Positions 1 to 33,463 of a DNA stretch of 64,000 nt are shown here, one piece after another (the first letter of the stretch is position 1; each line of letters starts with the position of its first letter). The DNA comes from a virus. Made by a program: the position numbers and the translations under genes. Location of the stretch: positions 32,001 to 96,000 of the IMG/VR virus record IMGVR_UViG_3300042882_000899. The stretch is one strand, 5' to 3'. The notes below the pieces were generated by a model. That model saw only the letters and a program-made list of their open reading frames with translations. It was not told the DNA's origin and ran no database searches.

Positions 1-13
1 GGCCCTAAGTAAC

Positions 14-106
14 ATGTGCGTTGAATGCGGTTGCGAAAGTTTAGGCAGTGAAACTGGAATTAAAGAAGTTAATATCCAGGATGTTTCAGATCAAGGTAAT
101 AGATAA
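14..106 (+). CDS. small CxxCGC peptide (30 aa, MCVECGC...)
   Basis: Manual translation; ATG at 14, TAA at 104-106 overlapping the next ATG. Confidence 0.55.
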   Translation: MCVECGCESLGSETGIKEVNIQDVSDQGNR

Positions 107-213
107 TGTGTAAAGATTGCGGATGTGGAGTAGAACAAGAAATTCAAAACGAGTCTGCTGAATCACCAGCTAGCAGAAACGTTGTAACTATATCACAGAT
201 TAAGGGCGCATAG
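106..213 (+). CDS. small CxxCGC peptide (35 aa, MCKDCGC...)
   Basis: Manual translation; TAATG coupling with the upstream peptide and the same N-terminal motif. Confidence 0.6.
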   Translation: MCKDCGCGVEQEIQNESAESPASRNVVTISQIKGA

Positions 214-395
214 TGTCAGAAAACGTTGTAAGCTCTGGAGAGGCAACTAAAAAAAATCCTTCTCAGGGTAAATTTAAATCTGGTATACAGTCTAAAAGAC
301 CACCAATTAAGATAGACGTTAACAAGCACGGAATTAGAAGAGAAACTCCAACTGTTCCTAAATCACCTAGAAAAACTGGAAGAAAAAAAGTATAA
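213..395 (+). CDS. small basic hypothetical protein
   Basis: ORF track; TAGTG coupling with the upstream ORF; K/R-rich. Confidence 0.6.
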   Translation: MSENVVSSGEATKKNPSQGKFKSGIQSKRPPIKIDVNKHGIRRETPTVPKSPRKTGRKKV

Positions 396-757
396 TGTCG
401 CCAAAAAAGTTTGGCAAATTTGCGCCATTTAATGATACCATTATAAAAGATGGTAAAATTATAAAGATTAGAAAAGACGGTAGAATAAAGTCTATTGTTA
501 ATGATTACGAACCTAACCATAAAGGGGATAAAAAATTAGAAAGCTTCAGGACGGAACAGAAGTAGAAGAATTTGAATTCCCTATAGATTTAATTATACAC
601 ACTAAAGCACCTGCTAAGTGGAAAATTATTGACATGGAGACTGGCGAAGAGTACCTTGGAAACCAAGAACCCCATAAAACTTTTGCGGAGATCTTGAGAT
701 CTAGGGTTTCTTCTGGTAAAATTGGTCAATGGAAGAAAATAAAAAGGAGATCTGGTC

Positions 758-1237
758 ATGAATGAAAAAAATGTAGCTGAATGGATAGATGAGGATTTAA
801 TAAAAAACGGAATTGCAGACGTTGTTAAAAATTTGAATTTATATAACTATAAGTATTTAAACATTCATTTTATACCAAATATCTTGAGCGATACCTGTTC
901 AATAGAAGTTGAAGAGCTAAAAAGTGGTTACGAAGTTATTGATGGAATAGCCCTAGTAATCATAACATGTAATTCTGATCAGGATAAAGAGCTATGGTTA
1001 AAAGAAAATAACATCCCAGACTATTGGAATATATTCTTAGATCACGATAGAAGTGTATCTAAAAATTTTTCTAATCTAAATACAGAATACGATATCCCAG
1101 AAAGACTTTCCTGCTTAGTTAATTTTAACGGCGAGGTCCTGTGGTCCATGAAAAATGGTTTAAACGAAAAAAGAGATATGCTACTTTCAAATGAATTTAA
1201 TAAAGGCTTTGAAACTTTAAAAAATACAGCAGAGTAG
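758..1237 (+). CDS. degenerate AhpC/TSA peroxiredoxin/thioredoxin-fold-like protein
   Basis: FIP....TCSIE, then ..LDHDRSVSK.. and PERLSCLVNFNGEV resemble the AhpC/TSA pattern. Confidence 0.45.
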   Translation: MNEKNVAEWIDEDLIKNGIADVVKNLNLYNYKYLNIHFIPNILSDTCSIEVEELKSGYEVIDGIALVIITCNSDQDKELWLKENNIPDYWNIFLDHDRSVSKNFSNLNTEYDIPERLSCLVNFNGEVLWSMKNGLNEKRDMLLSNEFNKGFETLKNTAE

Positions 1238-1241
1238 TTTA

Positions 1242-2036
1242 ATGAAAAAGTTGTATTTTTTACATATACCAAAAACTGCTGGTAAATTTGTATCTGCTGG
1301 TGTATCAAAATCTCTTTCGGATCATGCTAACTCTTTATACATAAGCACACATTTTCCTAACAACAAAGAATTTTTATCGGATAAAATATATATCTCTGCA
1401 CATGCTGGTATGTATATACCAGAAAACGTAGAAGGTGTTGATGTAGCCACTATAGTTAGGAATCCCATTCATGCCAGGGCAAGCTACTTTAATTTTATAT
1501 ATCATATGTATTTAGACAAAAGGGAAGAGTATCTAAATCTTAATACAATGCGTGAAAAGTTCTTATACTACCTCTTTGAAGATAATAATTTTTTATCCCA
1601 TAACAATTATCAAACCAGATTTCTATGCAATTCTTCAAACCCAAAATCATGGGACAGAAAAGAGTATTTTAAAGAAAGCAATAGTCTTTTAAAAAAATAT
1701 CATGACGGTCAGGCTTTTGATTGGTTTATTGATAATGATAATACTTCAGTAGAATTAGCTATTTCAAATTTATCTAATTTTAAAATAAAAAATACTGTTG
1801 AAAGGATAGATTTATTTTTAGAAAGCGTATCTTCATGGTTTATGGATAACTATGGGATCAGCGTAGAGTTTAATAAAAATGATAGGATAAACGAAAGCTT
1901 GTCGAAGGACAAAAATAATTCCTATTCATCTAAAGATTTAATTGACATGCTAAGCGAAAAAGAAATAGAAAAAGTTTTAACTTTAAATAGCATGGACTAT
2001 GCTGTTTATAATTTTGTAAAGGGCATGGAGTCTTAA
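1242..2036 (+). CDS. sulfotransferase family (Sulfotransfer_2-like) protein
   Basis: LYFLHIPKTAG PAPS-binding motif, TIVRNP..R..S motif, C-terminal LNSMDYAVY. Confidence 0.8.
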   Translation: MKKLYFLHIPKTAGKFVSAGVSKSLSDHANSLYISTHFPNNKEFLSDKIYISAHAGMYIPENVEGVDVATIVRNPIHARASYFNFIYHMYLDKREEYLNLNTMREKFLYYLFEDNNFLSHNNYQTRFLCNSSNPKSWDRKEYFKESNSLLKKYHDGQAFDWFIDNDNTSVELAISNLSNFKIKNTVERIDLFLESVSSWFMDNYGISVEFNKNDRINESLSKDKNNSYSSKDLIDMLSEKEIEKVLTLNSMDYAVYNFVKGMES

Positions 2037-2037
2037 A

Positions 2038-3336
2038 ATGAAATTAAGTCCAGAAAGACCAAAAAAAGAATTAGAAGCGTTTAACTTTAAAATGCAAGGC
2101 TCATATGAAATAGATGAAATTACGAATATCGCCTTGTCATTTGATAAGCAGTGGAATTTATATACCTCTAGACAAAAAGAAGTGTATCCAGATAGAGTAA
2201 ACCCACATCTACACACAAATACTTATATCATACAGAACCACCCCCTGGACTGGGTTTTTGGAAGCCCAATAGCATCAGAGGTTTTGGATCCAGAAGCATT
2301 GTCTTCTATTTCTCATATAGTAGAATCTCTGGAGGAGGATTTAGTTGGAAAAGCTGCCAGAGTGCTTTTGATAAAACTAGAAGCTAATAAAGATGTCGCT
2401 ACACATGTTGATAATGGCGACTACTTATCAACAGTTAGAAGGTTTCACATACCATTGATAACAAATGATTTAGTTTCATATACAGTTAATGATGAAACTA
2501 TACATATGAAAAAATCTGAATGCTGGGAAATAAACAACCTAAAATATCATTCAGTTAGAAATGATGGGGATCAAGATAGAATACACTTATTAATAGATAT
2601 ACTTCCTGAGTATTCATTTAGAGTTTATAACGATAATTTAGACAAAAATGTTAGAATTATTGAAAATTTTATAACATCAGAAGAAGCAATTTTTTTTATA
2701 GATTATATAAACAAAAATAAAGATGACAAATCTAAATTTCCTTTAACAAGAGGCGAGGTGAGAGGAAAGATTAGAAGTGAAGCAAACATACCAGAGCTGG
2801 TGCCATTAAAAAAACATGAGGAAATACTAAATCAAATAAAAGATATTTCTAATAGGACTATGCGTGAGTTTAAGGATATATCTGGCAAAGATGACCTGTG
2901 CACCTCTGCATTTTGGATGACCAGACTTGGTCCCAATACAGTTTTGCCAATGCATACAGATGACCACAAGTTTGCTCAACATCTCTATATGAGCTCAGTT
3001 ATATATTTAAATGAAGATTATGAGGGCGGCTATATTAAATTTAAAGATGTTGATGTAACCTATAAGCCTAAAAAATATAGTGCAATATTTTTCCCATCTT
3101 CATATCAGCATGCAGTAACTAGAGTGAAAAGTGGTATAAGAATGACTTTGCCTAACTGGGTTTCGCTTGGGCAGGAAAGAAATATATTTGTAGAGAATCC
3201 AATTGTACATGATCCAAGAACTTTATTTGGTAGTGATTCTGATGATCCAGCTCTTCCAGCCCTTCTAGCAAGCTGGGCCAAAGCAAACAAGACAACAATA
3301 GCTGGTTATGATGGAACTGAGTATTATGGAGAGTAA
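2038..3336 (+). CDS. two-domain 2OG-Fe(II) oxygenase (AspH-like + prolyl-4-hydroxylase-like)
   Basis: HVD...RFHIPL...H.V.N...RIHL in the N-terminal domain; HTD...YLNEDYEGG...H.V...R in the C-terminal domain. Confidence 0.8.
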   Translation: MKLSPERPKKELEAFNFKMQGSYEIDEITNIALSFDKQWNLYTSRQKEVYPDRVNPHLHTNTYIIQNHPLDWVFGSPIASEVLDPEALSSISHIVESLEEDLVGKAARVLLIKLEANKDVATHVDNGDYLSTVRRFHIPLITNDLVSYTVNDETIHMKKSECWEINNLKYHSVRNDGDQDRIHLLIDILPEYSFRVYNDNLDKNVRIIENFITSEEAIFFIDYINKNKDDKSKFPLTRGEVRGKIRSEANIPELVPLKKHEEILNQIKDISNRTMREFKDISGKDDLCTSAFWMTRLGPNTVLPMHTDDHKFAQHLYMSSVIYLNEDYEGGYIKFKDVDVTYKPKKYSAIFFPSSYQHAVTRVKSGIRMTLPNWVSLGQERNIFVENPIVHDPRTLFGSDSDDPALPALLASWAKANKTTIAGYDGTEYYGE

Positions 3337-4030
3337 AACGTTTGATCAAGAACACGCCATAGATTTGCTTGGTTACAACCTTAATAAAGTACCAATAAGT
3401 GAAGTTATTTGGTTAGATAAAAGCATACTGTTAAGTTTTGATTTAATGATTCACAAAAGCCCACTGCAGTACTCAGCTATAGTAGATATTGATTTTTTTA
3501 CACATGATAAAGATAAGGCATTTGAAAAAGAAAAGGCAAAATCATTTGCATCGATAACAATAAACGATAAAAGCATTTTATTGTCTTACAATGATTTCAG
3601 CATAAAATCTCCTTATATTTTTAATTTATTTGATTATGATAATAAATGGCATAGTTTTGAAATAGAAATTTTTCGGGAAAATCTATGGTGTCCAAATAAA
3701 AAATGTAAGTTTGAAGATTGTGTTCATTTAGATGCAGAGGCTTTAGATGATGACTATTTGGGATGGGACAATAGAGGATTAAAAAAGCATAGACGGGTTT
3801 CACTGTCTATTGATGGTTCAGAAAAACAATATTTTAACTATATGACTGATGCTAATAATTCTGTGATAAGTTTTGGAAACAATAACTTTAATCTAACAAA
3901 AGATTCAAAGTTGTATGCAGACGTAATTAAATATAATTTAGCAAATAAGCCATCATTATCATTAAAAAACATAAAAGCTGTATCGGGCGAGGATGAGGTA
4001 GAGTTTACATTAAAGAATAATATAAGTTAA
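3308..4030 (+). CDS. hypothetical protein
   Basis: 240-aa ORF overlapping the upstream gene end. Confidence 0.6.
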   Translation: MMELSIMESKTFDQEHAIDLLGYNLNKVPISEVIWLDKSILLSFDLMIHKSPLQYSAIVDIDFFTHDKDKAFEKEKAKSFASITINDKSILLSYNDFSIKSPYIFNLFDYDNKWHSFEIEIFRENLWCPNKKCKFEDCVHLDAEALDDDYLGWDNRGLKKHRRVSLSIDGSEKQYFNYMTDANNSVISFGNNNFNLTKDSKLYADVIKYNLANKPSLSLKNIKAVSGEDEVEFTLKNNIS

Positions 4031-4227
4031 AAATATGCTATTGACATACACCTACATATATTATATAATTTAATTATGAAAACTTTAGGAACATTAATTT
4101 TGTTAGGATTTATTGCCTACTTTATCTTTGCTGCTTATAGAGATATGAAGCAGGCAGTTGAAGCAACAAAGATACAGGAAAAGTACAATACAGACAAATT
4201 TTGGACATCTCAAAGGGATTTTGAGGA

Positions 4228-4530
4228 ATGAGTATGATTAAGCCATATGGCAATTTGCTGCTAGTTAAAGAAGATAAGGTAGAAGACAAAACAACATCCT
4301 CTGGTATTGTTTTGATGGCTTCTTTAAATGAATCATCTCTTAGAACTGGAAAGATCATCGACCTTGGAAATGGTGAGCATAACTATAAGGGTGAGCTAAT
4401 CCCTATTAACGGATTAGACGTTGGTGATGTAGTTTACTACAATCAAAACAGCGGTATTGATATTGAAGATGAAGGCGGAGAAAAGTATTTACTTCTGAAT
4501 ACAAAAAGCGTACTAGCGATTAAGGATTAA
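4228..4530 (+). CDS. groES: co-chaperonin GroES (Cpn10)
   Basis: IKPYGNLLLV..EDKTTSSGIVL, G.G, VGDVVYY, YLLL....VLAI. Confidence 0.9.
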   Translation: MSMIKPYGNLLLVKEDKVEDKTTSSGIVLMASLNESSLRTGKIIDLGNGEHNYKGELIPINGLDVGDVVYYNQNSGIDIEDEGGEKYLLLNTKSVLAIKD

Positions 4531-4810
4531 TTATTGTGAGAGAGCCTAAAATCATGAAGATGGACTGGCGTTCACTAGGATATTGGCCAGTTTACAAAGA
4601 TGAAAAGCTTACATGGGAAAAGGATCCTGATAAAGATGTGCAATAAATGCGGGATGTATCAAGAGAACATAGAGTATTGGGATAATCATCAGACTATGTC
4701 AGATAACAATGTATGGTGTGCTAAATGAAAGCTTTCTTAATATTAATGCTAGGTTTATTTCTATTTCTTAATTACATGGCCTGGTTACAACAGCAAAGAA
4801 TGGTCGGATA

Positions 4811-5080
4811 ATGATTGATTGGTTAGTTAATCGCATATTTAGATTTACATCTCTAAGGCAGGCCATCTTTAATGAAGTACATCTGTATGACCATTTAGAT
4901 AGTATTATGAGTGACCCAGAATCTATGGAAACAGCATCATTGAGCTGGTGTGAAGGAGATACATGGTATGGTTGGGCGCATGATAGTAACGCAAAACGTT
5001 ACTACTTTGATGATATTGGAAATAAGTCTCTCATTGGATTATGGGAAGATCAATTTTTAAGCAAGGCTGATAACAATTAG
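4811..5080 (+). CDS. hypothetical protein
   Basis: ORF track, 89 aa. Confidence 0.6.
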   Translation: MIDWLVNRIFRFTSLRQAIFNEVHLYDHLDSIMSDPESMETASLSWCEGDTWYGWAHDSNAKRYYFDDIGNKSLIGLWEDQFLSKADNN

Positions 5081-5083
5081 AAT

Positions 5084-5154
5084 TTCAGGTTCCTATAATG
5101 GTCGTAGAGCGGTTTCCGAAACCGACAATGAAGGTCCGATTCCTTCACCTGGAG
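5084..5154 (+). tRNA. tRNA-Arg(CCG)
   Basis: Acceptor stem TTCAGGT/ACCTGGA; D-stem CTAT/GTAG; anticodon loop TTCCGAA; T-arm GAAGG-TCCGATT-CCTTC; no encoded CCA. Confidence 0.75.
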
Positions 5155-5365
5155 CATAATGCCTAAACGTTGGGAAGATAAATCTCAATGGATAACTCAT
5201 TGCCCAATATGTTTTTGTGCAACCACACATCAATTATTAGATTTTCATTTACAATATCATAAAATGTTGATCCCAATTAGTGAGGCCGTCGAAAAAAGAG
5301 ACATCTCAGTCAACTACGTTGACGCAACTGATGGTATAATAGATATCTAACGATAAGGATATAGT

Positions 5366-5596
5366 ATGTGGTGGTCATGGGTACTTGCTGCGATAGGTGT
5401 AGCTGGGATATATTTTGTAGGTCGAAAAGATAAGTGGGGGTGGTTTGTCCTGCTATTTAACGAATGTCTCTGGATAGCTTACGCAGTAATAACAAAACAG
5501 TATGGGTTTATTGCATCTGCAATCGCATATGCAGCAGTGTATATTAGATCTTATATACACTGGTCTAAAGAGCCAGTAAATAAAATAAGCATATGA
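5366..5596 (+). CDS. short PnuC-like membrane protein
   Basis: Hydrophobic; GRK..WGW.......LW..Y.....YG pattern. Confidence 0.55.
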   Translation: MWWSWVLAAIGVAGIYFVGRKDKWGWFVLLFNECLWIAYAVITKQYGFIASAIAYAAVYIRSYIHWSKEPVNKISI

Positions 5597-6372
5597 AACA
5601 AACAATTAAGTTTCATTCAAAAACATTTAAAAACAATTTAGTTAAAGAAAATGCCCCATCACCTGCAAAAAGCTTTATGCCAGACTGGTTTGTGTCTAAA
5701 GAAAAATATGTTGTGGATGAAAATAATAACAAGTCTATTGAGTTTTACAAAACTAAAGATGGATCTGTCAAATTCAAAAGAAACAGAACGTATAAAGCTT
5801 GCCCTGCACTACTGGATTCTTTGTCGTCTGGCTACCTATTGTACACTCCATGCGACATAGAGGTTAAGAAAAAAGATGGGCAATACTTAATATCCGTAAA
5901 TGAAGATTTTGGTTCTGGAGTCAATGTAAAAAATGGTGCATTTTCATTTATTAGGGGCGAGAATGACGGATTTCCAACCCCAGTTGGCCACAGCCCAGTG
6001 CATTTTGTATGGAATACCAACTGGTTTCCAGAGGTTCCAGATGGGTATGTAGCTCTATTTGCTCACCCTATAAACAGGTTTGATCTACCATTCACAACAA
6101 TATCTGGAATAGTAGATTGCAGCGGATACATAAATGGAGGGGCAATCCCTTTCTTTATCAAAGAAGGATTTGAAGGTATAATAGAAGCTGGCACACCATT
6201 TGTTCAGATAATTCCATTTAAAAACGAGCAATGGGAGCACGAATCTATATTCTATAACGAAGAAGAGTCCTTAATTCATAGGCAACAAATGAACTCAGAA
6301 TATAGAGTTGTAGATGTTGATCACGACACTAACTATAAGCAAAAATTTTGGACTAAAAAAACTTATAAATAG
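5593..6372 (+). CDS. DUF6065-like protein (paralog of 38886-39611)
   Basis: P.PA...PDWF, KACP...SGY, HP.N..LPF..SG.VD, IEAGTP.VQIIP. Confidence 0.55.
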   Translation: MKQTIKFHSKTFKNNLVKENAPSPAKSFMPDWFVSKEKYVVDENNNKSIEFYKTKDGSVKFKRNRTYKACPALLDSLSSGYLLYTPCDIEVKKKDGQYLISVNEDFGSGVNVKNGAFSFIRGENDGFPTPVGHSPVHFVWNTNWFPEVPDGYVALFAHPINRFDLPFTTISGIVDCSGYINGGAIPFFIKEGFEGIIEAGTPFVQIIPFKNEQWEHESIFYNEEESLIHRQQMNSEYRVVDVDHDTNYKQKFWTKKTYK

Positions 6373-6381
6373 GGGGAACAA

Positions 6382-6630
6382 ATGGCATACTCTAGATTCG
6401 CAGATAGCGATATATACATCTATCCTCATGTTGGCGGGTGGATTGAATGTGCAGCATGCTGGCTAAATGAGCCTTCAGATGAATATTCTTTATTCTCTAT
6501 GTCAGAAGAAATACATGACGATGGTCATCTAATTGCACATGTAAGAGAACATATTAAGGCGGGACACAATATTCCAACTGGTCTACTAATGGACATCCTG
6601 GAAGATGATAATAGATATGGTAAAATATAA
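6382..6630 (+). CDS. hypothetical protein
   Basis: GGGGG SD; MAYSRF..SD.Y.Y, CxxC. Confidence 0.7.
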   Translation: MAYSRFADSDIYIYPHVGGWIECAACWLNEPSDEYSLFSMSEEIHDDGHLIAHVREHIKAGHNIPTGLLMDILEDDNRYGKI

Positions 6631-6632
6631 TT

Positions 6633-6854
6633 ATGGATAATATAGAATTAACAGATGAAGAGATCTCAAAGGGCTATGAGTCAGATAACCCAGATGAAGA
6701 TAAATGGGACAACATTGAAAAAGCTTGCTGGAGCGGTTATAAGCAGGTTGGTATGAAAGAAAAGGGTGGACAAAAAGTCCCCAACTGCGTACCTGTAAAA
6801 AAGTCCCTATTTGGCACTGAAGGCCCCCAGAAGCTCATACCAAGGAATAAGTAA
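6633..6854 (+). CDS. small protein with CW.GY...G.K....VPNCVP motif
   Basis: ORF track; motif of a kind seen in phage proteins. Confidence 0.65.
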   Translation: MDNIELTDEEISKGYESDNPDEDKWDNIEKACWSGYKQVGMKEKGGQKVPNCVPVKKSLFGTEGPQKLIPRNK

Positions 6855-7023
6855 CATGGGTATACTAGACAACCTTGAAGCGGCTTTAGAGGCGGAAGAG
6901 GCAGAAAAGTGTCATTACTGCCAAGCTGTAGCTATATATAATGACCTTGCTGAAGTAGATAAGAACTATCAAATAGTAGGCGTATGTGCATGCCATTCAT
7001 TTAAAGGACTATCCTCCTAACTA

Positions 7024-7053
7024 TTGACAATTCCTAGTCGACTAGGATATAAT
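7024..7053 (+). promoter_or_regulatory. sigma-A promoter with palindromic spacer, leaderless protease mRNA
   Basis: TTGACA-N18-TATAAT; spacer holds TCCTAGTCGACTAGGA; ATG 5 nt after the -10. Confidence 0.7.
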
Positions 7054-7058
7054 GTAAT

Positions 7059-8015
7059 ATGAAAAAAACAAAATGGCTATCATCAATTGCTATATCAATT
7101 ATTATGGCTATTTCTCCTGCGTCAGCAGTCGAGAATGGAACCTTATTAACACACGATGACAATGCTGTCTATTTATTAGACGGATCAGTAAATGCTTTCC
7201 TTTACAAGCCACAGATCGTATTCACATCTGCACATGGAATGGACCAGTGGGCTAAAGGAGATCTATTTGTTAATACATCCTACGGCAAAAAAGTAATGGT
7301 TAAACAGATACTAATGGCAAAGGGATTTAAAGATAGAATAATTACTAAAGAATCAATTGCGTCAGGAACATCAGTCACAAGCAGGTCCAATGACTTTGCA
7401 ATACTAATCTTATCAGAACCAATTCCAATGACAAATACAGTAGAATTAATTAAGGCTGAAGATCTTCCTATCATTCTTAATAGCCAAGAGCCAGTATACT
7501 CAGTTGGATATAGCTATTATGACAACACTCGCAAGAAAGACCAGAGCCCAAGACAACTTGAAGCAAAGATGATTGATAAAGAGTTGGCACGTCAGATATA
7601 CCAAAGGTACTATTCAGTCTGGCATCCAAATTGGGGTCCACGTGGAGCAACATTCGAACTGCTAGATATTCAATTAGTACATTCTGCAGCAAAAGGCTCA
7701 GGTTGTGACGGAGACTCAGGCAGTGGTTACTTTATTAAAAGGGGTGAAAACAAGGTCTACTTGGGTCCTGCTGGGGCACACAGTATTGGAATACCAAACT
7801 GCGGTCAGCCTGGATATTGGGGTGAGTACGGTAATGCCTTTGGTATTGAACCTGTATATAAACACTTAGATCTTATAAAAGAGGCTGAACTAATTGTTGA
7901 TAGCATGGTAATTAAGCCAGTAGACCCGAAGGTGGAACCTAAAGTAGAACCGAAAAAGAAGTATAATAGGAGATGGTCTAGCTTATTCAGGTATACACAA
8001 TTTCTTATGTGTTAA
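7059..8015 (+). CDS. secreted trypsin-like serine protease
   Basis: Signal peptide; catalytic triad motifs TSAH, NDFA, GDSGS. Confidence 0.85.
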   Translation: MKKTKWLSSIAISIIMAISPASAVENGTLLTHDDNAVYLLDGSVNAFLYKPQIVFTSAHGMDQWAKGDLFVNTSYGKKVMVKQILMAKGFKDRIITKESIASGTSVTSRSNDFAILILSEPIPMTNTVELIKAEDLPIILNSQEPVYSVGYSYYDNTRKKDQSPRQLEAKMIDKELARQIYQRYYSVWHPNWGPRGATFELLDIQLVHSAAKGSGCDGDSGSGYFIKRGENKVYLGPAGAHSIGIPNCGQPGYWGEYGNAFGIEPVYKHLDLIKEAELIVDSMVIKPVDPKVEPKVEPKKKYNRRWSSLFRYTQFLMC

Positions 8016-8092
8016 TATAGTCTAATATAGGCCGAAAGTGAAGTCGAAAAGTAGAGACACCCAGTCACTACGTGACAATATAGATTGGCAAC

Positions 8093-8440
8093 ATGAAGAA
8101 TTTAAATCAGGTATTTAAGCCTTATAAGGCTCAGTTTGATAGATGCCCTATACATATTAAGATCCTAGCCATATTGTGCGTTATGTACCTATCTGTCCCA
8201 ATTGACCCATTTGATATACTATTCCCCTGGGCGGCATTCTCAGATGATATATTCATAGCAGGCATCCTACTCAAGATATTGCACAAACACGGCGGGCTAC
8301 CAGAAGAAGATAGAACTACCCCTATAGATCTACTAAGAGATATATTCAAGAGAACAGATAAGAAACAAGAAGATACTTCCTTGGCAGTACATTTATTTAA
8401 AGATAATGTATGCAAGGATTGTGGATTGAAGCAAGTATGA
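8093..8440 (+). CDS. DUF1232/YkvA-like membrane protein
   Basis: YL..PIDP.D..P.....DD motif. Confidence 0.7.
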   Translation: MKNLNQVFKPYKAQFDRCPIHIKILAILCVMYLSVPIDPFDILFPWAAFSDDIFIAGILLKILHKHGGLPEEDRTTPIDLLRDIFKRTDKKQEDTSLAVHLFKDNVCKDCGLKQV

Positions 8441-8645
8441 AAGAAGAATTAGATCCATTAGGCATATCTTGGAAAGATGCACCAGATTGGTGTGATGATT
8501 GCAATTCAAATCCTGGAGAAAAATGTCCAGATTGTGGCTATACACACAATTGCTAGAGCTCCACAAATAGGGACATATTAGCTCCTAACTACTATATCCC
8601 CCCTCCCTTTATCTCCCTTGTATCAGCCTCCTAGAGGCTTATATA

Positions 8646-8671
8646 GTGGAGTATTGTGGAGTAAAGTGGAG
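8646..8671 (+). promoter_or_regulatory. MraZ-type triple repeat (GTGGAG-N4)x3
   Basis: GTGGAG TATT GTGGAG TAAA GTGGAG with exact 10-bp period in non-coding DNA. Confidence 0.6.
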
Positions 8672-9067
8672 AATCATACTATCAATTAATGTCTAAATAC
8701 TATCATTATATATATCTAAACATATGTATGTAATGGAACGCTACCATTTGATGTTCATAATGTCAATAGCGCCTATATAAAGCATATTGGCCAATATATG
8801 TCAATAGATATTCCAGGAAATTTTTTTATTTGTTCGTAAAGAGCAATTTTGGCCCATATTTATGGCAAAAATTATGTCAAATTCTGCATGATTTGTCTCA
8901 TATAATGAGATATTCTATGCACATTTTGACAGATTATATTAGATTTAATACAAATTCCAGGGCATTTTTATATGTGATCGTAAAGAGAAAATTTGGCCCA
9001 TAAGATGGGCATACAAAAATGGGACATATAGCTAATTAAAGCCATATGCCCCATAGGGGAAGTTATC

Positions 9068-9412
9068 TTAGAATGAATCCAAGTCCATTATGTATTTACT
9101 ATCTCTTACTCTTGTTTCTTCAAGGGATTGGATTGTTAGGTTTCTATCCACCGCCCCGTATTTTGCTTCCAGGATGTCATTGAGAGCATCTGCCATAAGC
9201 AATCCTTCGGATGTGTATCCTTTATCCCATTCTGACTTTAATCTAAGGGAATTGTATTGGATAATGTATCTAACTAGTTCCATTAGCCTGTCTTGGGTAT
9301 ACAAGGTATGTTCAGTTGTTAATACATTTGCCATTACAGCAGGTGAGAAGTTAGCATTATTTAGATAGTCTGTTAGTTTTTCTGCCGCTTTGAATTCGTT
9401 TGCTTTAGCCAT
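9068..9412 (-). CDS. hypothetical early protein
   Basis: ORF track; own promoter and AACGAAAGG leader. Confidence 0.8.
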   Translation of the reverse strand: MAKANEFKAAEKLTDYLNNANFSPAVMANVLTTEHTLYTQDRLMELVRYIIQYNSLRLKSEWDKGYTSEGLLMADALNDILEAKYGAVDRNLTIQSLEETRVRDSKYIMDLDSF

Positions 9413-9467
9413 TGAGTTCCGCCTTTCGTTTTGATTATACCATTGACCACTGACATTTGTAAATGAA

Positions 9468-9498
9468 GGGGGACCCGCCTCAGCAGAGGCAGGTCCCC
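9468..9498 (-). terminator. GC-rich hairpin after the Lsr2-like gene
   Basis: GGGGACCTGCCTC-TGCT-GAGGCGGGTCCCC on the minus strand; weak U-tract. Confidence 0.55.
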
Positions 9499-9509
9499 AC
9501 AGTTAGTTG

Positions 9510-9662
9510 TTACTTGACGTTCTTCTTGTCTGTGAAGACTACGCCTTCTTGTGCTGCCTTGCTGATAGCTCCTAGAGCTGCTGCTGAAAAGCGACCACGC
9601 TTGCCTACAGAAATGCCCTGGGTCTTTAGGTACTCACGAGTTGTTGTTGGTGTTGATGTCAT
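9510..9662 (-). CDS. Lsr2 DNA-binding-domain-only protein (50 aa)
   Basis: Not in the ORF track. MTSTPTTTREYLKTQGISVGKRGRFSAAALGAISKA... resembles the Lsr2 C-domain (IREWA..NG..VS.RGRI); AGAAAGGA SD; TTTACA-N17-TATAAT promoter. Confidence 0.7.
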   Translation of the reverse strand: MTSTPTTTREYLKTQGISVGKRGRFSAAALGAISKAAQEGVVFTDKKNVK

Positions 9663-9812
9663 TTAGTTTGATCCTTTCTAGATCGAGTTGTTATATATAT
9701 TATATCCGAATTTCGGGGATTTGTAAATAGAGTCGTAAAGCAATATTTTTGCCCGTCTCCCTTAGATTGATGACCGTTATGTCCGAATTGTCCATAACGG
9801 TCCAACCTATCT

Positions 9813-9998
9813 TTATTTAGTTGTTACTTCTAGTTCTACTACATTGTATGGCTCAATCAGGTCATCAGTTGGAATCTCAGTCCAGCCCTCTGCAGGAATC
9901 CTAAGCGCTGACTCCCATGCAAGGTCGTGAGACTCTGCGTTAATGATTACATAAAACTCTTGCTTGCGGTCACCATAGATTTTATAGTCTTGTCTCAT
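9813..9998 (-). CDS. hypothetical early protein
   Basis: ORF track; coupled within the operon. Confidence 0.65.
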   Translation of the reverse strand: MRQDYKIYGDRKQEFYVIINAESHDLAWESALRIPAEGWTEIPTDDLIEPYNVVELEVTTK

Positions 9999-10124
9999 AG
10001 TCCCACCTGTTCTACCCTATCTTTAATTAGTTTAGCAATGATGTTATGGGCCTCGATGTTTTCAGTTTCGCTGCCACCCCATAGCAAAGCTTGGGCCTTG
10101 CTAAGTTGATCGTTTAAGTATTCA

Positions 10125-10439
10125 TCACTCATCTTCATCTTCGTCTTCTTCCTCTTCCCACTCAGGGTCAGTAATGTAGTCACGATTCAACATCCACTCT
10201 AGGACATCGTCTTGGTGCTGTTCTGCACCGTATTCCAAGGAAAAGCCTTGTCCAGCCTCCACAGCCTCGCACAGGTGGTTCCACATGTCATCTTGGGTAA
10301 CCTTAGCATTGTAGTTCTCATCATCTAAGATGTTATTAATAGTTGACCATGTCCATAGCCAAACAAGCGATAGGCCAAGGTCGGTGCTGTCTAGAATCTC
10401 TAAACACTTGTTTAGTTTATCTTTATCTTCAGGCTTCAT
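10125..10439 (-). CDS. hypothetical early protein, acidic tail
   Basis: ORF track. Confidence 0.75.
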   Translation of the reverse strand: MKPEDKDKLNKCLEILDSTDLGLSLVWLWTWSTINNILDDENYNAKVTQDDMWNHLCEAVEAGQGFSLEYGAEQHQDDVLEWMLNRDYITDPEWEEEEDEDEDE

Positions 10440-10725
10440 TCAATGGCTCCGAATCTATTCTCTCTTGAATTGCAAATGAGAGTTGATATGTTAGTTGATA
10501 CAGGTCAACTAGCATGTCGAGTCGTCCTTCACACTCTGTACGGACCATAGAGTCCATTGCCTCTTCGGACCTTTCTTCTTGTGCTAATGCCTCTGATAGG
10601 TCTTGCTCAGCAATTAGCATTAGATTCTTTAGTTCACCATGCAAGATATCAAGGCCTGATACTCCAGCATTAACCATGCGTTGCAAATGGGGCGGGAGCC
10701 CAATGTCTTCTGCAGTCATATTCAT
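10429..10725 (-). CDS. hypothetical early protein
   Basis: ORF track; AACGAAAGG leader. Confidence 0.75.
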   Translation of the reverse strand: MNMTAEDIGLPPHLQRMVNAGVSGLDILHGELKNLMLIAEQDLSEALAQEERSEEAMDSMVRTECEGRLDMLVDLYQLTYQLSFAIQERIDSEPLNEA

Positions 10726-10931
10726 TAATATACCCTTTCGTTATCAAGCATTATATCAGTTGCCACTGACAAAATATGTTCCATAGTATCAATTGCTCCT
10801 GTGTAATATGCATCTGATTCAAAGTACTCATCTTCATTTAAAGGTATGTTATTTCTAGCATCCTCTAAATCTTGTTCTAAACTAATCTTATGTATCTTTA
10901 GATATTCCATAAAATGTGATGACCTAGTCAA
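10725..10931 (-). CDS. hypothetical early protein (contains embedded promoter)
   Basis: ORF track; GGAGG SD. Confidence 0.65.
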   Translation of the reverse strand: MTRSSHFMEYLKIHKISLEQDLEDARNNIPLNEDEYFESDAYYTGAIDTMEHILSVATDIMLDNERVY

Positions 10932-11097
10932 AATAACCCTCCGCCCATAGTCCCTGGAGAAAACTAACTGTCATCTCCAAATCATTTCTAAGTTGTGTCT
11001 TGTCCATTAAATCGGACGGGGATCGAAGATAGAATAACTTAGCATCATGTACTGAGTTAATCATAGTATCTAAATCTTTTTTCTCATATCCTAACAT
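10924..11097 (-). CDS. hypothetical early protein (57 aa, MLGYEKKD...LWAEGYFD)
   Basis: Manual translation; fills the gap between coupled ORFs. Confidence 0.6.
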   Translation of the reverse strand: MLGYEKKDLDTMINSVHDAKLFYLRSPSDLMDKTQLRNDLEMTVSFLQGLWAEGYFD

Positions 11098-11309
11098 CAT
11101 AAGCAGAACTCATCTCCTTCAATATATCCATAGTATTCATTGTATGATTGTTTTAAGTTATCAGGTGCAAATTGCATAAACTTAAATTCTGCATAATCTG
11201 TACCTTCATCTAAATTAGCATTGTTCCATTGCTCAAATAGATGTTGCTCAATATCTACTTGAATTGCTCCAAGAAGATGTTCTCCTACTGTATCTGTAAA
11301 TGCTTCCAT
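11097..11309 (-). CDS. hypothetical early protein
   Basis: ORF track. Confidence 0.7.
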   Translation of the reverse strand: MEAFTDTVGEHLLGAIQVDIEQHLFEQWNNANLDEGTDYAEFKFMQFAPDNLKQSYNEYYGYIEGDEFCL

Positions 11310-12043
11310 TATGCTTCCGCCTTTCTATATTCAGGAACTTTGGTTTCTAAGTATACACTATGGGTCTGACATTCTTTAACAGCCTCTAGGTCTGCCTCGC
11401 CAAGCCAGTTGCAAGCACCGCAGATTTCTCCACATTCATTCTCGCAGTATTCCATTTGATTAGTTGCATCACAATCACGGCACATGTTATCATATTCTGA
11501 TTCTGAGATAACTTCACCACGGAGGAATTCCATTTCCCCACCCCAACCTGTTTCTTCTTCATATGATAAAGTAAATAGTAGTGTTGGGTATTGTGCAGAT
11601 AGTTTAGAGATAGCACCAAGAGGCCGTGACCATGCAGTATTAAAGTTATAATGAACTACATAGTTCTCGCCATTCTCGGCTTCCTCGATAGTTGTATCAG
11701 GATACTTGTCATCTTCTGATACAGCAACATCCCACTTAGTACCCCACTCACGAACATTAAAGTTGTACCAGTCATTGGTCTCAAACTTCATTGCCTGAGA
11801 AAAGTCGGTGGAACGAGGAGGTTGTCCATGATATACCTCATCAGTAATACCAGCATCCTTATATGAATAGATATTATGAAAAGCAAAGATAGGATTAACA
11901 TACTTAGTCTGCTTGACATCATATGATAAATCACCTACAGGTGTAATAGAATAAACAAATGGCTTATTCATCTGCTTGATTAGATTTTTAACTTGCTCAG
12001 GATTACCTTCAATAGTTAATCCATTAAATACCCAGTTTGGCAT
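11309..12043 (-). CDS. DUF1281/Api92-like ferredoxin-fold protein with C-terminal Cys cluster
   Basis: MPNW..N.L, WY......WGTKWD, F.TAWS.P, L.YEE.G motifs. Confidence 0.7.
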   Translation of the reverse strand: MPNWVFNGLTIEGNPEQVKNLIKQMNKPFVYSITPVGDLSYDVKQTKYVNPIFAFHNIYSYKDAGITDEVYHGQPPRSTDFSQAMKFETNDWYNFNVREWGTKWDVAVSEDDKYPDTTIEEAENGENYVVHYNFNTAWSRPLGAISKLSAQYPTLLFTLSYEEETGWGGEMEFLRGEVISESEYDNMCRDCDATNQMEYCENECGEICGACNWLGEADLEAVKECQTHSVYLETKVPEYRKAEA

Positions 12044-12267
12044 TTTATATCCTTTCGTTGATATGTTCCTATTATATATTAGACCACTGACAAATGTCTA
12101 TATGATATGGGTCACAAACGATAATTTGACCCCTCCAAATTAGTGTTTACACTTCTATATGTAAATCAATATAGATGTGTAAGCTTTGTGGTCAAGATCA
12201 TAGCAAATTCCAGGGAATATAATTGACAGTCGTAACGACAATATGCTACCCTCATGTCTTTGCGGGC

Positions 12268-12297
12268 AAAGAAAAACCCCCCAGCTAGTGGGGGGTC
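12268..12297 (-). terminator. intrinsic terminator
   Basis: ACCCCCCA-CTAGC-TGGGGGGT followed by TTTTCTTT. Confidence 0.85.
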
Positions 12298-12416
12298 TTG
12301 AATAATGGCTGCCTGGATTTCCAACGAAAGAAATAAACCCGCTTTACTTAGCGCCTGGCCATTGAGACTGATAGACGCACCATTATATTTCCTATTAAAA
12401 CCAGGACCTTAGTCCT
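12268..12416 (-). ncRNA. putative structured sRNA antisense to the early-gene AACGAAAG leader
   Basis: -10 TATAAT at 12428-12423, intrinsic terminator at 12268-12297, nested stems, loop AUUUCUUUCGUUGG. Confidence 0.65.
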
Positions 12417-12423
12417 AGTCTAA

Positions 12424-12789
12424 TTATACCATAACTAGTCGACTGTATTTGTCTACGAATGCCGCCAAGGATAGACTGAATACAACCGTGCTCATATCTT
12501 CCTCGTACAGTGTAAACGTTTGAGAGGCCCAGTTAATTACAGGCACCTTGTGTTCGTTGTCCCCTAGTTGATTTACGTAGAGCCCCCATGATAATGTTTG
12601 ATTCCAGTCTTCTCCAATTAAATGAGAGATTGCAATACGTGTTGCATATGATGGGTCCTGCCAACGTGTCTCTGCAGCGCTAACAGCATTTGCCAGTTTG
12701 GCTAGCATGTCGTGGCCTGCCCAGTGCCCGTATAAAAATATTGTATCGCCTTTTTGGTCTTTAAACCCAAAGTTTGCTCTGTCGCCCAT
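12424..12789 (-). CDS. conserved-looking phage protein (MGDRA...YLY.HW.G type)
   Basis: ORF track. Confidence 0.8.
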   Translation of the reverse strand: MGDRANFGFKDQKGDTIFLYGHWAGHDMLAKLANAVSAAETRWQDPSYATRIAISHLIGEDWNQTLSWGLYVNQLGDNEHKVPVINWASQTFTLYEEDMSTVVFSLSLAAFVDKYSRLVMV

Positions 12790-12790
12790 A

Positions 12791-13000
12791 TTATTCCGCC
12801 GTTTCTAAAGTAGGTACTGCTTCTTCTATTTTGTTTAATTCTATCACTTCGTATGCGACCTTGTCAAGGCCACGCTTGCTTGCATTGTAGTGGTGACCGC
12901 AAAAGAACAGTTCACCTTCTACTAGTTTAACTAAGTACATTGCTTGAGCTGTGTTACATTGATCACATGCTATCCATCTTGTTAGATCTTCCGTTGTCAT
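12791..13000 (-). CDS. small Zn-binding protein (CxxC...FCGHH)
   Basis: CDQC...A...L.FCGHH motif. Confidence 0.75.
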   Translation of the reverse strand: MTTEDLTRWIACDQCNTAQAMYLVKLVEGELFFCGHHYNASKRGLDKVAYEVIELNKIEEAVPTLETAE

Positions 13001-13152
13001 AGTTTTCCTCCTTCGATCATCTCAGATAGACGGTCAAGGATCCAGGAATCAATGTCGTTGATATCAATCTCTGACAACTTTTCCATGATCTCTTCACGAG
13101 CAAACTTATATCCATCTGCCCAGCCATCTTTATATTCTGACATAATCTCTCC

Positions 13153-13356
13153 TTAGTAACCTGTTGTTTCGTAGTCTGATATGTATGATTCAGTTAAGTT
13201 GTACTTATCACGCAGACGACTTACTTTCTCAATACTACCAGTTCCAATGTTGAATGTCAATGGAGCCATTCTCTGCGGGTCGAGTCCGTTGATTTCTGCA
13301 TCCCAATAGGCCCTCTCCATGGAGAGCCTATTAGGAGCGGTGAGTTCAAAATACAT
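13153..13356 (-). CDS. hypothetical early protein
   Basis: ORF track; GGGAGG SD. Confidence 0.7.
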   Translation of the reverse strand: MYFELTAPNRLSMERAYWDAEINGLDPQRMAPLTFNIGTGSIEKVSRLRDKYNLTESYISDYETTGY

Positions 13357-14012
13357 TATGCCTCCCTAACGTTGCAAACTTCGGTGTCATCAATTGTGAT
13401 GTTTCCGTCATTTGATTCAGCATATAATGAATCTGTTATAACTGACTCAAGGTCGTACTCTGAATAATCTGATAGAACATCATATGAATATGTTCCAGTA
13501 ACTTCTACAGATGCAGTAAACTGAACTTCCTTGATAAGTTCGATACCAAGCGCTTCAGCAATGTCACGCAATGTATCTTGGTCTTGTGAATCTGCATATG
13601 CCTCGCAGATGATTTCCTTGACTGCATCAATCTTAGATTGAATAGAACTTAAAGTCTTCTGCGATTGACGGGCATTGTGAAGGTCCCATTCAATACTGGT
13701 AACCTTATCTGTAATGTACTCAGGATTAGAATAACCGTTAATCTTTTTATATGTTACTAATAGATTAGAGTTATATGTATCTGGTACCAAGTGCTCTGTT
13801 GTTTCCATTTTTTCCTCTTTCGTTTGGGTTAAGGGTGTAATTGTAGCATGCTCCACTGACAATAATGTAGTCTTACGCCCGCATGGGCATGTGAGTTCTG
13901 TCACACCTGAAGGAAAGCCAAATCCATCAGATGATGTAAGTTCAATTAAACAATCGCAATGCTCAGGATCACATGCGAATGTGTATTTACTTGATATGAG
14001 TTCGTTGGTCAT
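13356..14012 (-). CDS. early protein with two in-frame starts (MTNELI.. at 14012; METTEH.. at 13808)
   Basis: Each start has its own TGTCAG-N10 promoter. Confidence 0.65.
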   Translation of the reverse strand: MTNELISSKYTFACDPEHCDCLIELTSSDGFGFPSGVTELTCPCGRKTTLLSVEHATITPLTQTKEEKMETTEHLVPDTYNSNLLVTYKKINGYSNPEYITDKVTSIEWDLHNARQSQKTLSSIQSKIDAVKEIICEAYADSQDQDTLRDIAEALGIELIKEVQFTASVEVTGTYSYDVLSDYSEYDLESVITDSLYAESNDGNITIDDTEVCNVREA

Positions 14013-14113: not shown

Positions 14114-14190
14114 TGGCGATCCATATCGGACTTGAACCGACGGCCTCTACCGTGACAGGGTAGCGCTCTAACCAACTGAGCTAATGGACC
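14114..14190 (-). tRNA. tRNA-Asp(GTC)
   Basis: GGTCCATTAGCTCAGTTGGTTAGAGC..CTACC-CTGTCAC-GGTAG..GTTCAAGTC..CCA. Confidence 0.95.
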
Positions 14191-22626: not shown

Positions 22627-22701
22627 GGGCCTATAGCTTAATCTGGTTAAAGCACTTGTCTTATATACAAGCGACTTTGGGTTCAAATCCCAATGGGCCT
22701 A
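22627..22701 (+). tRNA. tRNA-Ile(TAT)
   Basis: Acceptor stem GGGCCTA/TGGGCCT; anticodon arm CTTGT-CTTATAT-ACAAG; GGTTCAAATCC. Confidence 0.88.
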
Positions 22702-22867
22702 CTTGGTTTAAATAGGGAGTATAATACTTATATGTTAGCTTATGATGTTCCTCTTTCCGCCCTCCTTTTTATTCTATGGGCAGGTGTACCTGTTGAGGAA
22801 TACATAAAAGGTCCGTCTCAGGAAGAAACTCTAGCTTATATTGAGATGTTGAAGAGGATACAGGAGA

Positions 22868-31885: not shown

Positions 31886-33463
31886 ATGGCAACAGTAAAT
31901 AAAAACTTTAGAATTAAAAATGGTCTTATCGTTGAGGGTGCTACCGCTACCGTTAACGGTTTTGGTGTATTAACCAAGGCTCAGGCAGACCAAGACTACA
32001 TTGTTGGTCTTATTGGTGGTACATCAACTTCAGCCAATACAGCAAATACTGTAGTAAAGCGTGACGCTAACGGAAACTTTGCCGCAGGAACAATTACTGC
32101 TACATTTGTTGGTAACCTTACTGGTGACGTAACAGGTACAGTTTCAAGTCTTTCAAACCACGATACAGGAGACCTTGCAGAAGGAACTAACCTTTACTTT
32201 ACAAATGATCGTGCAATAAGCGCAACAGCCGCATCATACGATGCAGCAGGCTCAGCAGCATCAGCTCAGTCAGCAGCAATTACTGCAGCAGCAACAGATG
32301 CAACTACTAAGGTAGCAGCAGAAGCAGCACTTAGAGTATCAGGCGACGCAGCTTCAGTATCAACCGCAGCAGCAGATGCAACATCTAAGGCAGATGCAGC
32401 CCAGGCAGCAGCAATCTCAGCAGCAGCAGCAGATGCAACATCTAAAGCAGATGCAGCCCAGGCAGCAGCAATCTCAGCAGCAGCAACAGACGCTACTACA
32501 AAGGCTAACGCAGCTCAGGCAGCAGCAATCTCAGCAGCAGCAACAGACGCTACTACAAAGGCTAACGCAGCACAAGCAGCAGCAATCTCAGCAGCAGCAG
32601 AAGCAGCTGGAACAGCAATTGCAACCGCAGTAGACGGTCTTGTTGACGGAGCACCAGCACTTCTTAATACATTAAATGAATTGGCAGCAGCAATTAATGA
32701 TGATGCTAATTACACAACAACTATTACAACAGCTCTAGGAACAAAAGCACCACTTGCTTCACCAGAACTTACTGGTGTACCTACAGCACCGACTGCAGCA
32801 GCAGATACTAATACAACTCAAATTGCTACAACAGCATTTGCTAAGGCAGAAGCAGACGCAGCTCAGGCAGCAGCAGAAGCAACTGCAGCATCAGATGCAA
32901 CTACTAAGGTAGCAGCAGAAGCAGCACTTAGAGTATTAGGCGACGCAGCTTCAGTATCAACCGCAGCAGCAGATGCAACATCTAAGGCAGATGCAGCTCA
33001 AGCAGCAGCAATATCAGCAGCAGCAACTGATGCCACTACAAAGGCTAACGCAGCTCAAGCAGCAGCAGAATCCACAGCGGCAGCAGCTAATACAGCTCAG
33101 CAAAATGGAACTACATCATTTACAGCAATTAATTACAACGATGTCGCTAAGCAAGTTGCGGCAACAACTGGAAATATTGCGGTAGCAGCAGAAACAACAG
33201 CTATCTCATGGGTGGCAGCAGATTACAGAAGCGCTAAGTTTGTAGTCAAGGTAAAAAATGGTGTACATACTCAGGTCTCAGACCTAGTAGTTACCCTTGA
33301 TACAGCTAACAACGTAGCAGTTTCTGAATATGGAATTACATATTCAAACGGAACAGAACTAGCTGCAGTAACAGCAGATTACTCTGGATCAGATGTAAGA
33401 ATTAGAGTAACTCCAGCAAACGCTAACACAGAAGTTGTCGTTGTTGGAACATTAATTAAATAA
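31886..33463 (+). CDS. tail fibre-like protein with Ala-rich repeats
   Basis: (AAQAAAISAAATDATTKA)n; APALLNTLNELAAA; PTAPTA....TQIATT. Confidence 0.75.
   Translation: MATVNKNFRIKNGLIVEGATATVNGFGVLTKAQADQDYIVGLIGGTSTSANTANTVVKRDANGNFAAGTITATFVGNLTGDVTGTVSSLSNHDTGDLAEGTNLYFTNDRAISATAASYDAAGSAASAQSAAITAAATDATTKVAAEAALRVSGDAASVSTAAADATSKADAAQAAAISAAAADATSKADAAQAAAISAAATDATTKANAAQAAAISAAATDATTKANAAQAAAISAAAEAAGTAIATAVDGLVDGAPALLNTLNELAAAINDDANYTTTITTALGTKAPLASPELTGVPTAPTAAADTNTTQIATTAFAKAEADAAQAAAEATAASDATTKVAAEAALRVLGDAASVSTAAADATSKADAAQAAAISAAATDATTKANAAQAAAESTAAAANTAQQNGTTSFTAINYNDVAKQVAATTGNIAVAAETTAISWVAADYRSAKFVVKVKNGVHTQVSDLVVTLDTANNVAVSEYGITYSNGTELAAVTADYSGSDVRIRVTPANANTEVVVVGTLIK
32265..33070 (+). 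repeat. tandem and dispersed coding repeats (57-bp unit; ~110-bp block duplicated at ~32295 and ~32893)
   Basis: Direct inspection. Confidence 0.8.

Follow-up and report, generated by a model that had tools for sequence, protein, structure and literature searches.

A short stretch of the minus strand, inside the 13-kb early block of a viral genome, holds what its conservation in relatives argues to be a real gene for a small, structured RNA, and sequence comparison places this RNA in a new family, found in relatives of the cluster BE phages of Streptomyces (Stanwilliamsviridae, BE phages below). In the reading that we prefer, and hold with about even confidence, an old phage scaffold acquired a leader-reading P4 loop in the freshwater lineage, and the RNA would mask the Shine-Dalgarno (SD) sequences of the early mRNAs in trans.

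The window is the whole stretch of DNA that was analysed, 64,000 nucleotides long (positions 32,001 to 96,000 of the IMG/VR record IMGVR_UViG_3300042882_000899), and all positions refer to it. The complete viral record has a length of 114,960 bp and a GC content of ~38%, and its relatives originate from freshwater samples. The portal protein is 57-59% identical to those of the BE phages, and Genie2 gp4 shares 48.5% identity with the DUF932 gene that lies in the early block, hence the host is very probably an actinobacterium. Elsewhere in the window, a 967-aa protein (33952-36855, plus strand) displays an N-terminal Mtd_N domain (major tropism determinant type; Pfam E = 3e-13) and may be the receptor-binding protein of a diversity-generating system.

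Promoters and leaders of the early block

Of all 8-mers in the early block, AACGAAAG is repeated most often, with 11 copies on the minus strand between 9423 and 20299, whereas ~1.55 are expected in the window; none of 100 shuffles reached 13. Each copy is located 13-17 nt past a promoter of the form TGTCAGTG-N8-TATAAT and 5-9 nt before an ATG, the order being promoter, leader, SD and ATG at every one of them, with GAAAGG as the SD part of the leader. Throughout the 115-kb genome, 11 of the 12 reverse-strand copies fall within the early block. Short and rich in A and C, the leaders have no inhibitory structure; those predicted to be targets of the RNA start at the following positions:

9423, 10735, 12052, 13817, 15256, 16197, 17179, 17984, 18343, 18611 and 20292, minus strand: AACGAAAG in the 11 predicted target leaders

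Sixteen promoters reading TGTCRG-N10-TANNNT, without a canonical -35, lie on the minus strand between 9455 and 20600. The AACGAAAG leader follows 11 of them, variants such as AAAAGAAAGG, AAAGAAAAGAGG and AUAGAAAGG follow four, and one (14041) looks leaderless. We take these promoters to match the actinobacterial RecA-NDp/PafBC-type motif. The initial annotation had called the regulon PafBC-driven, a candidate reading that is drawn from the promoter resemblance. At promoter 14041 (14041-14000, minus strand) ATGACCAACGAAC starts 7 nt past the -10, and among its first codons is CCAACGAA, which matches the UUCGUUGG portion of the RNA loop over 8 nt. The corresponding transcript could be a leaderless mRNA and a candidate twelfth target, and the sequence suggests that the start of the 228-aa ORF is mis-set.

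Anatomy of the RNA gene

The RNA gene is present as a single copy in the genome. Its parts, given in the order of transcription, are the following:

12431-12268, minus strand: whole RNA gene, with extended -10, 5' hairpin, ~100-nt core and strong terminator
12423-12431, minus strand: putative promoter of the small RNA, an extended -10 TGGTATAAT of the TGnTATAAT type, with no TGTCAGTG element upstream
12403-12416, minus strand: 5'-terminal hairpin AGGAC/GUCCU with loop UAAG, followed by the invariant linker GGUUUUAAUA (12402-12393)
12379-12386, minus strand: 5' strand of the closing stem P1, pairing with 12302-12309 to close the three-way junction
12351-12378, minus strand: helix P2 and arm P3, P2 being formed by 12378-12373 with 12356-12351
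12372-12369, minus strand: asymmetric internal loop inside P2
12368-12366 with 12360-12358, minus strand: P3 hairpin GUC/GGC, loop 12365-12361, overlooked in the initial annotation
12343-12350, minus strand: single-stranded junction J2/4, UAAGUAAA, made of invariant columns
12311-12342, minus strand: P4 arm, with base GC (12342-12341) paired to GC (12312-12311) and apical loop 12334-12321
12340-12335 with 12320-12315, minus strand: P4 stem GGGUUU/AAAUCC
12323-12330, minus strand: anti-leader 8-mer CUUUCGUU in the P4 apical loop, exact complement of AACGAAAG
12302-12309, minus strand: 3' strand of P1, with the invariant junction A12310 just before it
12268-12297, minus strand: intrinsic terminator, a G/C-run stem and then a U tract, kept in class a

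The positions originally assigned to the -10, the 5' hairpin, the closing stem, the P4 stem and loop and the terminator are all correct. The proposal of an ORF-less minus-strand unit is also borne out, since the unit is non-coding and structured, with strong covariation, and relatives keep the -10 at the same place. No conserved ORF was found in the RNA: indels are not multiples of three, and an 11-codon ORF is absent in class b. Relatives are referred to here by loop class, a to c with the anti-leader and d without it. The extended -10 is invariant across all class a relatives, and transcription would start near 12416. The stem of the 5' hairpin covaries in relatives (e.g. GGACC/GGUCU and GGGUC/GACCU), and classes b to d do not have this hairpin. 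Class a and many relatives of classes b, c and d have the terminator, with compensatory changes; some class b members are without it.

Concerning the linker GGUUUUAAUA, it is invariant in class a though unpaired in the comparative fold; together with the 5' hairpin it looks like a weak terminator of the upstream gene, and it is able to pair with the 3' strand of P4. After the terminator (12262-12215, minus strand) there is a further conserved element, consisting of GCCCGCAA, 8-10 nt, GGGTAnnAT and then TTACG. It occupies the same place in all relatives, even distant ones, is not RNA-structured, and is probably regulatory DNA of the gene modules.

Parts of the region 11300-13400 are contained in 15 sequencing runs. 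Contigs from four RNA libraries span the genes and the RNA without distinction, and carry no information on ends, strand or level; one such contig crosses the terminator, and the gaps in cover adjoin it.

The 121-aa ORF upstream (12789-12424, minus strand) has its stop codon (12426-12424) inside the extended -10; it runs in the same direction as the RNA gene, with no strong terminator in between. This arrangement would also fit a structured 3' UTR or terminator of the 121-aa gene that stabilises its mRNA in cis, and coding constraint could then explain part of the -10 conservation. We consider this very unlikely given what is seen in relatives. The RNAs of class d and of the BE phages lie in other contexts, behind full promoters of their own (TTGACA-17-TAnnnT), and in class b a -10-like hexamer, 11-14 nt upstream of P1, has a position that tracks P1. 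Moreover, the invariance of junction and loop far exceeds what a stabiliser needs.

Several other identities were tried and rejected. A riboswitch or cis leader is at odds with what follows the terminator, namely ~170 nt and a separate promoter belonging to the next gene (start at 12043, with a leader of its own), and there are no G runs to rival the terminator stem. As regards a tRNA, tmRNA or tRNA-like element, the searches with ARAGORN and Rfam detect nothing in the window beyond its three true tRNAs, namely Arg-CCG (5084-5155, plus strand), Asp-GUC (14114-14190, minus strand, situated within the early block) and Ile-UAU (22627-22702, plus strand), and the tip of P4 appears to have no T-loop signature. 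Likenesses to a kink-turn, a T-loop, SRP, the GTPase centre and helix 45 of 16S rRNA, sought by eye, were in no case consistent across the family.

Fold and covariation

The comparative evidence describes the core as a conserved three-way junction. Among 50 distinct homologues, standard pairs fill 97.6% of the cells, compared with 86.5% after shuffling and 30-49% when the partners are slid, and compensatory changes occur in 10 of the 22 pairs; this 50-sequence alignment was fitted to the covariance model R1, which favours structure, and the swaps are visible in a plain MAFFT alignment too. In P1, for example, pair 12/120 is UA in 24 sequences, GU in 9, AU in 7 and GC in 3. P2 and P3 are paired in 99.7% and 100%, respectively, with GC, CG and AU swaps, and the same module is found in the Streptomyces phages. 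All four stem pairs of P4 show compensatory changes. The junction J2/4 has the family consensus UAARYAAN, and reads UUAAWUA in the BE phages.

With respect to the stems proposed initially, all of them stand except the inner CGCU/AGCG hairpin, which shows no compensatory change and has its outer pair broken in 17 of 44 sequences. Its bases belong instead to the covarying 6-bp P2 (GCGUCU/AGGCGC) and to the base of P4.

It should be noted that the loop is open under the comparative fold only. In the minimum-energy fold of the single sequence the linker pairs with the P4 region and the loop is buried, the 8-mer having a probability of 0.013 of being unpaired. This linker-P4 pairing could be either noise or a switch.

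Distribution of the family

An exact-pattern scan of IMG/VR places the RNA family in at least 119 viral contigs from freshwater, and many of these belong to genomes of ~110-120 kb. Beside the orthologues of both flanking genes, the core is present in 104 of 126 loci, in 34 distinct versions. It was not found in the L080 group, nor in G001-G003 and G027-G031, which have another promoter and leader type, but an absence from these fragments, which are 19-66% complete, carries no weight. Class d comprises five viral contigs in which P4 lacks the anti-leader and ends in a triloop, a tetraloop or an unrelated loop. In one locus (L049:2340-2420, from IMGVR_UViG_3300008262_000142) the RNA gene is cleanly deleted, from just past GGTG to the downstream conserved element, and the neighbouring genes and the leader are intact despite the deletion.

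Each of 86 cultured BE phages carries two copies of a diverged form of the RNA, which lie within the terminal repeat, ~770-900 nt from the end. None of their records annotates it as an RNA, and in one it lies under a hypothetical-protein feature. The model R1 scores 99.5 bits for the window, 31-48 for class d and 15-24 for the BE phages. The latter have the same core letters as the window RNA, and their stems are compensatory, with P1 as CCUGGG/CCCAGG or CCCAGG/CCUGGG and P4 as GCUG/CAGC, GCAG/CUGC or GAGG/CCUC. The features proposed to define the family were all found: helices P1 to P3, the A-rich junction, and GC..GC-A-GCC at the base of P4.

The left arm of the BE genomes (L273, Genie2 1-12000, minus strand) is built like the freshwater early block, with ~26 small genes, each behind its own TAGACT-type -10 and often with a leader AACGAAGGG or CGAAAGG. 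In Genie2 the RNA gene is at the far end of this arm, after gp2.

Outside phages, the exact-pattern scan of 185,579 species genomes returned four matches. Three are short MAG contigs (2.9-3.5 kb) that contain the RNA, and the fourth, on a Chloroflexota chromosome, is unconfirmed; the RNA was not found in 20 relatives of one matching MAG. With only four matches in species genomes, the comparison does not make it look like a host RNA. Database searches gave no relatives either: Rfam has no match to the RNA at the gathering score in the window, and nothing meaningful up to E = 10 for 12200-12500 and for five BE loci, the best match of the RNA being Phe_leader with 19.7 bits against a cut-off of 55 bits; blastn of the locus against the phage collection gave no match, and no description of the RNA was found in the literature.

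P1, P2, P3 and the junction are common to all members, even to class d with its tetraloops and to the BE phages, which raises the possibility of an RNA centred on its scaffold. The junction would then bind a protein or a cell component (a ribosomal or RNA-processing factor), or act as a decoy, and the leader match would be secondary or incidental. The invariant bases of the internal loop and junction resemble those of protein- or ligand-binding RNAs, and in the BE phages P4 has another loop, AWGGUCGG, likewise invariant, together with an invariant tail after P1, GGRACCUUUCAA, that contains CCUUUC. What such an explanation leaves unaccounted for is the invariance of CUUUCGUU in three different loops, and the search of the neighbouring genes with Pfam and PHROGs gave no known RNA-binding family. 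On balance, we regard it as a real possibility, though a doubtful one. A role of the scaffold and an antisense role are not exclusive, and given that the scaffold is older and more widespread than the anti-leader loop, as class d and the BE phages indicate, it probably has a further role of its own. By the same token, the antisense unit postulated in the initial annotation keeps its match between loop and leader, but does not appear purpose-built.

Complementarity between loop and leaders

The anti-leader at 12323-12330 is, as had been noticed from the sequence of the window, the sole copy of the motif in the opposite orientation within the early block. Its complementarity to the ribosome binding site motif of 11 early transcripts, the central claim made at the outset, turns out to be exact, non-random and kept across three loop classes. 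An unbiased 7-mer scan of the whole RNA selects the loop site, with 11 targets on the same strand and 0 on the opposite one. The loop-leader duplexes have energies of -9.9 to -15.4 kcal/mol (mean -12.4) and 9-12 pairs, compared with a mean of -4.4 +/- 1.95 kcal/mol for 47 control gene starts; the 16197 leader gives 11 pairs, in agreement with the 11 bp initially counted for the 16187 gene.

Conservation follows the same limits. CUUUCGUU is invariant in classes a to c save for one singleton, while the loop flanks and stems differ among the three classes. In class c the motif is preceded by CC and followed by U, and the match with the phages' own leaders stretches to 10-13 bp. The conserved stretch of the loop and that of the leader have identical limits, which we regard as the strongest argument for a functional pairing. 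The part UUCGUU (12328-12323) matches AACGAA, the part of the leader that does not belong to the SD, and may form a hexaloop closed by C-G and U-G pairs, with a YUNR-type turn. Turns of this type occur in the recognition loops of known antisense RNAs.

Across the freshwater loci, AACGAAAG leaders have a density on the RNA strand of 5.5-6.0 per 10 kb in class a and b loci versus 0.6 in class d, and the two positions that precede CGAAAG hold A in 83-89% of cases in classes a and b versus 33-56% in class d (n = 9), a co-occurrence that is suggestive and confounded by relatedness. Co-variation of loop and leaders had been put forward as a check: the structure does covary, and between loop and leaders no true co-variation was seen, the loop 8-mer varying too little for any to show. 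The sole loop variant, L108, has unchanged leaders and shows no compensation. Between loop flanks and leader flanks no clear co-variation was found, the position before AACG being mostly A in all classes.

In the BE phages the early leaders also read AACGAA(A)GG, and the AAC extension is thus present in phages without the anti-leader. Therefore, the leader motif appears to be older than the anti-leader loop, and the comparison argues that the leaders did not evolve for the RNA. The complement of the BE loop (CCGACCAT) is neither enriched nor repeated in the two BE genomes searched, and 7-mer scans with the class d and BE RNAs gave no standout target.

A motif and its complement are also one and the same double-stranded site in both orientations, so that AACGAAAG might be an asymmetric protein-binding site on DNA, and the copy in the RNA gene another such site or a coincidence. 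In favour of coincidence, the match was picked post hoc in the initial annotation, which inflates its apparent significance; the chance that a given 14-nt loop contains the complement of any 8-mer repeated at least 8 times is, on a rough estimate, ~5e-4, and 7e-3 for the core, and both figures speak against it. Moreover, a covarying hairpin carries this copy at its tip, where it is invariant across the three loop classes, and the leader copies keep an SD-like fixed distance to the ATG, all of which makes a DNA-level or chance origin very improbable.

Proposed mechanism and its alternatives

According to the preferred reading, a stable non-coding RNA of ~150 nt would be made from a housekeeping-type extended -10, and not from the TGTCAGTG-type early promoters. 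Its P4 apical loop would display CUUUCGUU, able to form 8 to 13 bp with the AACGAAAG(G) leader of 11 early mRNAs. As the RNA accumulates, the loop would nucleate on AACGAA of the leader, and the resulting duplex would cover GAAAG, which is otherwise bound by the 3' tail of 16S rRNA, so that binding of the 30S subunit is blocked. The entire early set would be turned down jointly, and the mRNAs may be destabilised too. The sequences show the gene anatomy, the structure and its conservation, and a non-random complementarity; where the transcript ends, that it pairs in vivo and which way the effect goes are inferences. Several observations weigh against an antisense function: the scaffold occurs without the anti-leader in class d and in 86 Streptomyces phages, the BE phages have similar leaders anyway, L049 deleted the RNA yet kept the leader, the L108 loop variant is not compensated, the single-sequence fold buries the loop, some class b members have no terminator past P1, and the RNA-library contigs single out no discrete transcript.

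The same complementarity is also consistent with a pairing of different outcome, in which the early mRNAs are protected, activated or cleaved. The promoter of the RNA looks constitutive, and the RNA is possibly present from the start of infection. However, the duplex is predicted to cover the SD GAAAG, in competition with the pairing to 16S rRNA, and the short, A/C-rich leaders have no inhibitory structure to be opened; such an outcome is, in our judgement, unlikely.

A broader reading draws on the BE tail. Its CCUUUC corresponds, as we understand it, to the last bases of actinobacterial 16S rRNA before the terminal U, and the BE RNA thus also exposes an SD-pairing sequence; for this reason the family may handle SD sequences in general, a point noticed after the fact. 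The RNA could then be a modular adaptor, whose three-way-junction scaffold docks on a machine of the cell or the phage (e.g. the small ribosomal subunit or an RNase) and carries an exchangeable single-stranded address, working as a free-standing, extended anti-Shine-Dalgarno that re-programmes which leaders are translated. The address would be the P4 loop in the freshwater members and the 3' tail CCUUUC together with another loop in those of Streptomyces, and would in two lineages copy or extend the last bases of 16S rRNA. We offer this adaptor as a rather speculative idea, and not a likely one.

Comparison with known systems

The initial annotation had likened the RNA to the C4 antisense RNA of phage P1, a small structured RNA that P7 has as well (Rfam family C4; PMC12197685). 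The functional resemblance is maintained, as C4 also has a closing stem and, as is proposed here, prevents translation in trans through loop sequences that base-pair in the region of a ribosome binding site. The RNA is nevertheless not a C4 member, with no match at the gathering score, or to E = 10 for 12200-12500; its host is actinobacterial, and there is no sequence or structure match in Rfam. C4 acts on one operon (ant/icd) for immunity, whereas here one loop faces 11 separately promoted mRNAs.

A single phage product directed at many early mRNAs is also known from T4, where the protein RegA turns down their translation at the initiation regions; the difference is that here an RNA would do so by base-pairing with a common 8-mer. 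The staphylococcal RsaE and RNAIII and the actinobacterial 6C RNA work without Hfq, and their pyrimidine-rich loops pair with the SDs of several mRNAs. Unlike the RNA described here, they are host RNAs with C-rich loops and no common scaffold, while the present targets have an identical extended leader. In cluster K mycobacteriophages, the start-associated sequences are a conserved asymmetric motif with an SD before start codons. They are an analogue of the leader, not of the RNA, and their motif differs; we know of no complementary RNA reported for them.

To our knowledge, nearly all known phage-encoded regulatory RNAs come from enterobacterial phages. A 2025 review of phage regulatory RNAs mentions no actinobacterial phage. 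Lambda PreS (LPR1) is a trans-acting small RNA of lytic growth that activates translation of dnaN with Hfq (bioRxiv 10.1101/2024.10.31.621285). PreS acts on host genes, whereas the RNA described here is predicted to repress early genes of the phage itself.

Seen against these systems, a single RNA family spans abundant freshwater phages (at least 119 contigs, genomes of ~115 kb) and 86 cultured Streptomyces phages. The scaffold can be tested experimentally with the members from Streptomyces, and the freshwater members provide a natural series of loop variants. If the pairing works as proposed, this would be the first phage to silence separately promoted early genes with one leader-reading RNA, and it would explain part of why 'start-associated' leader motifs persist. 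The class of mechanism is a known one, and what is new is the RNA family, its host range and the design of one loop addressing many leaders.
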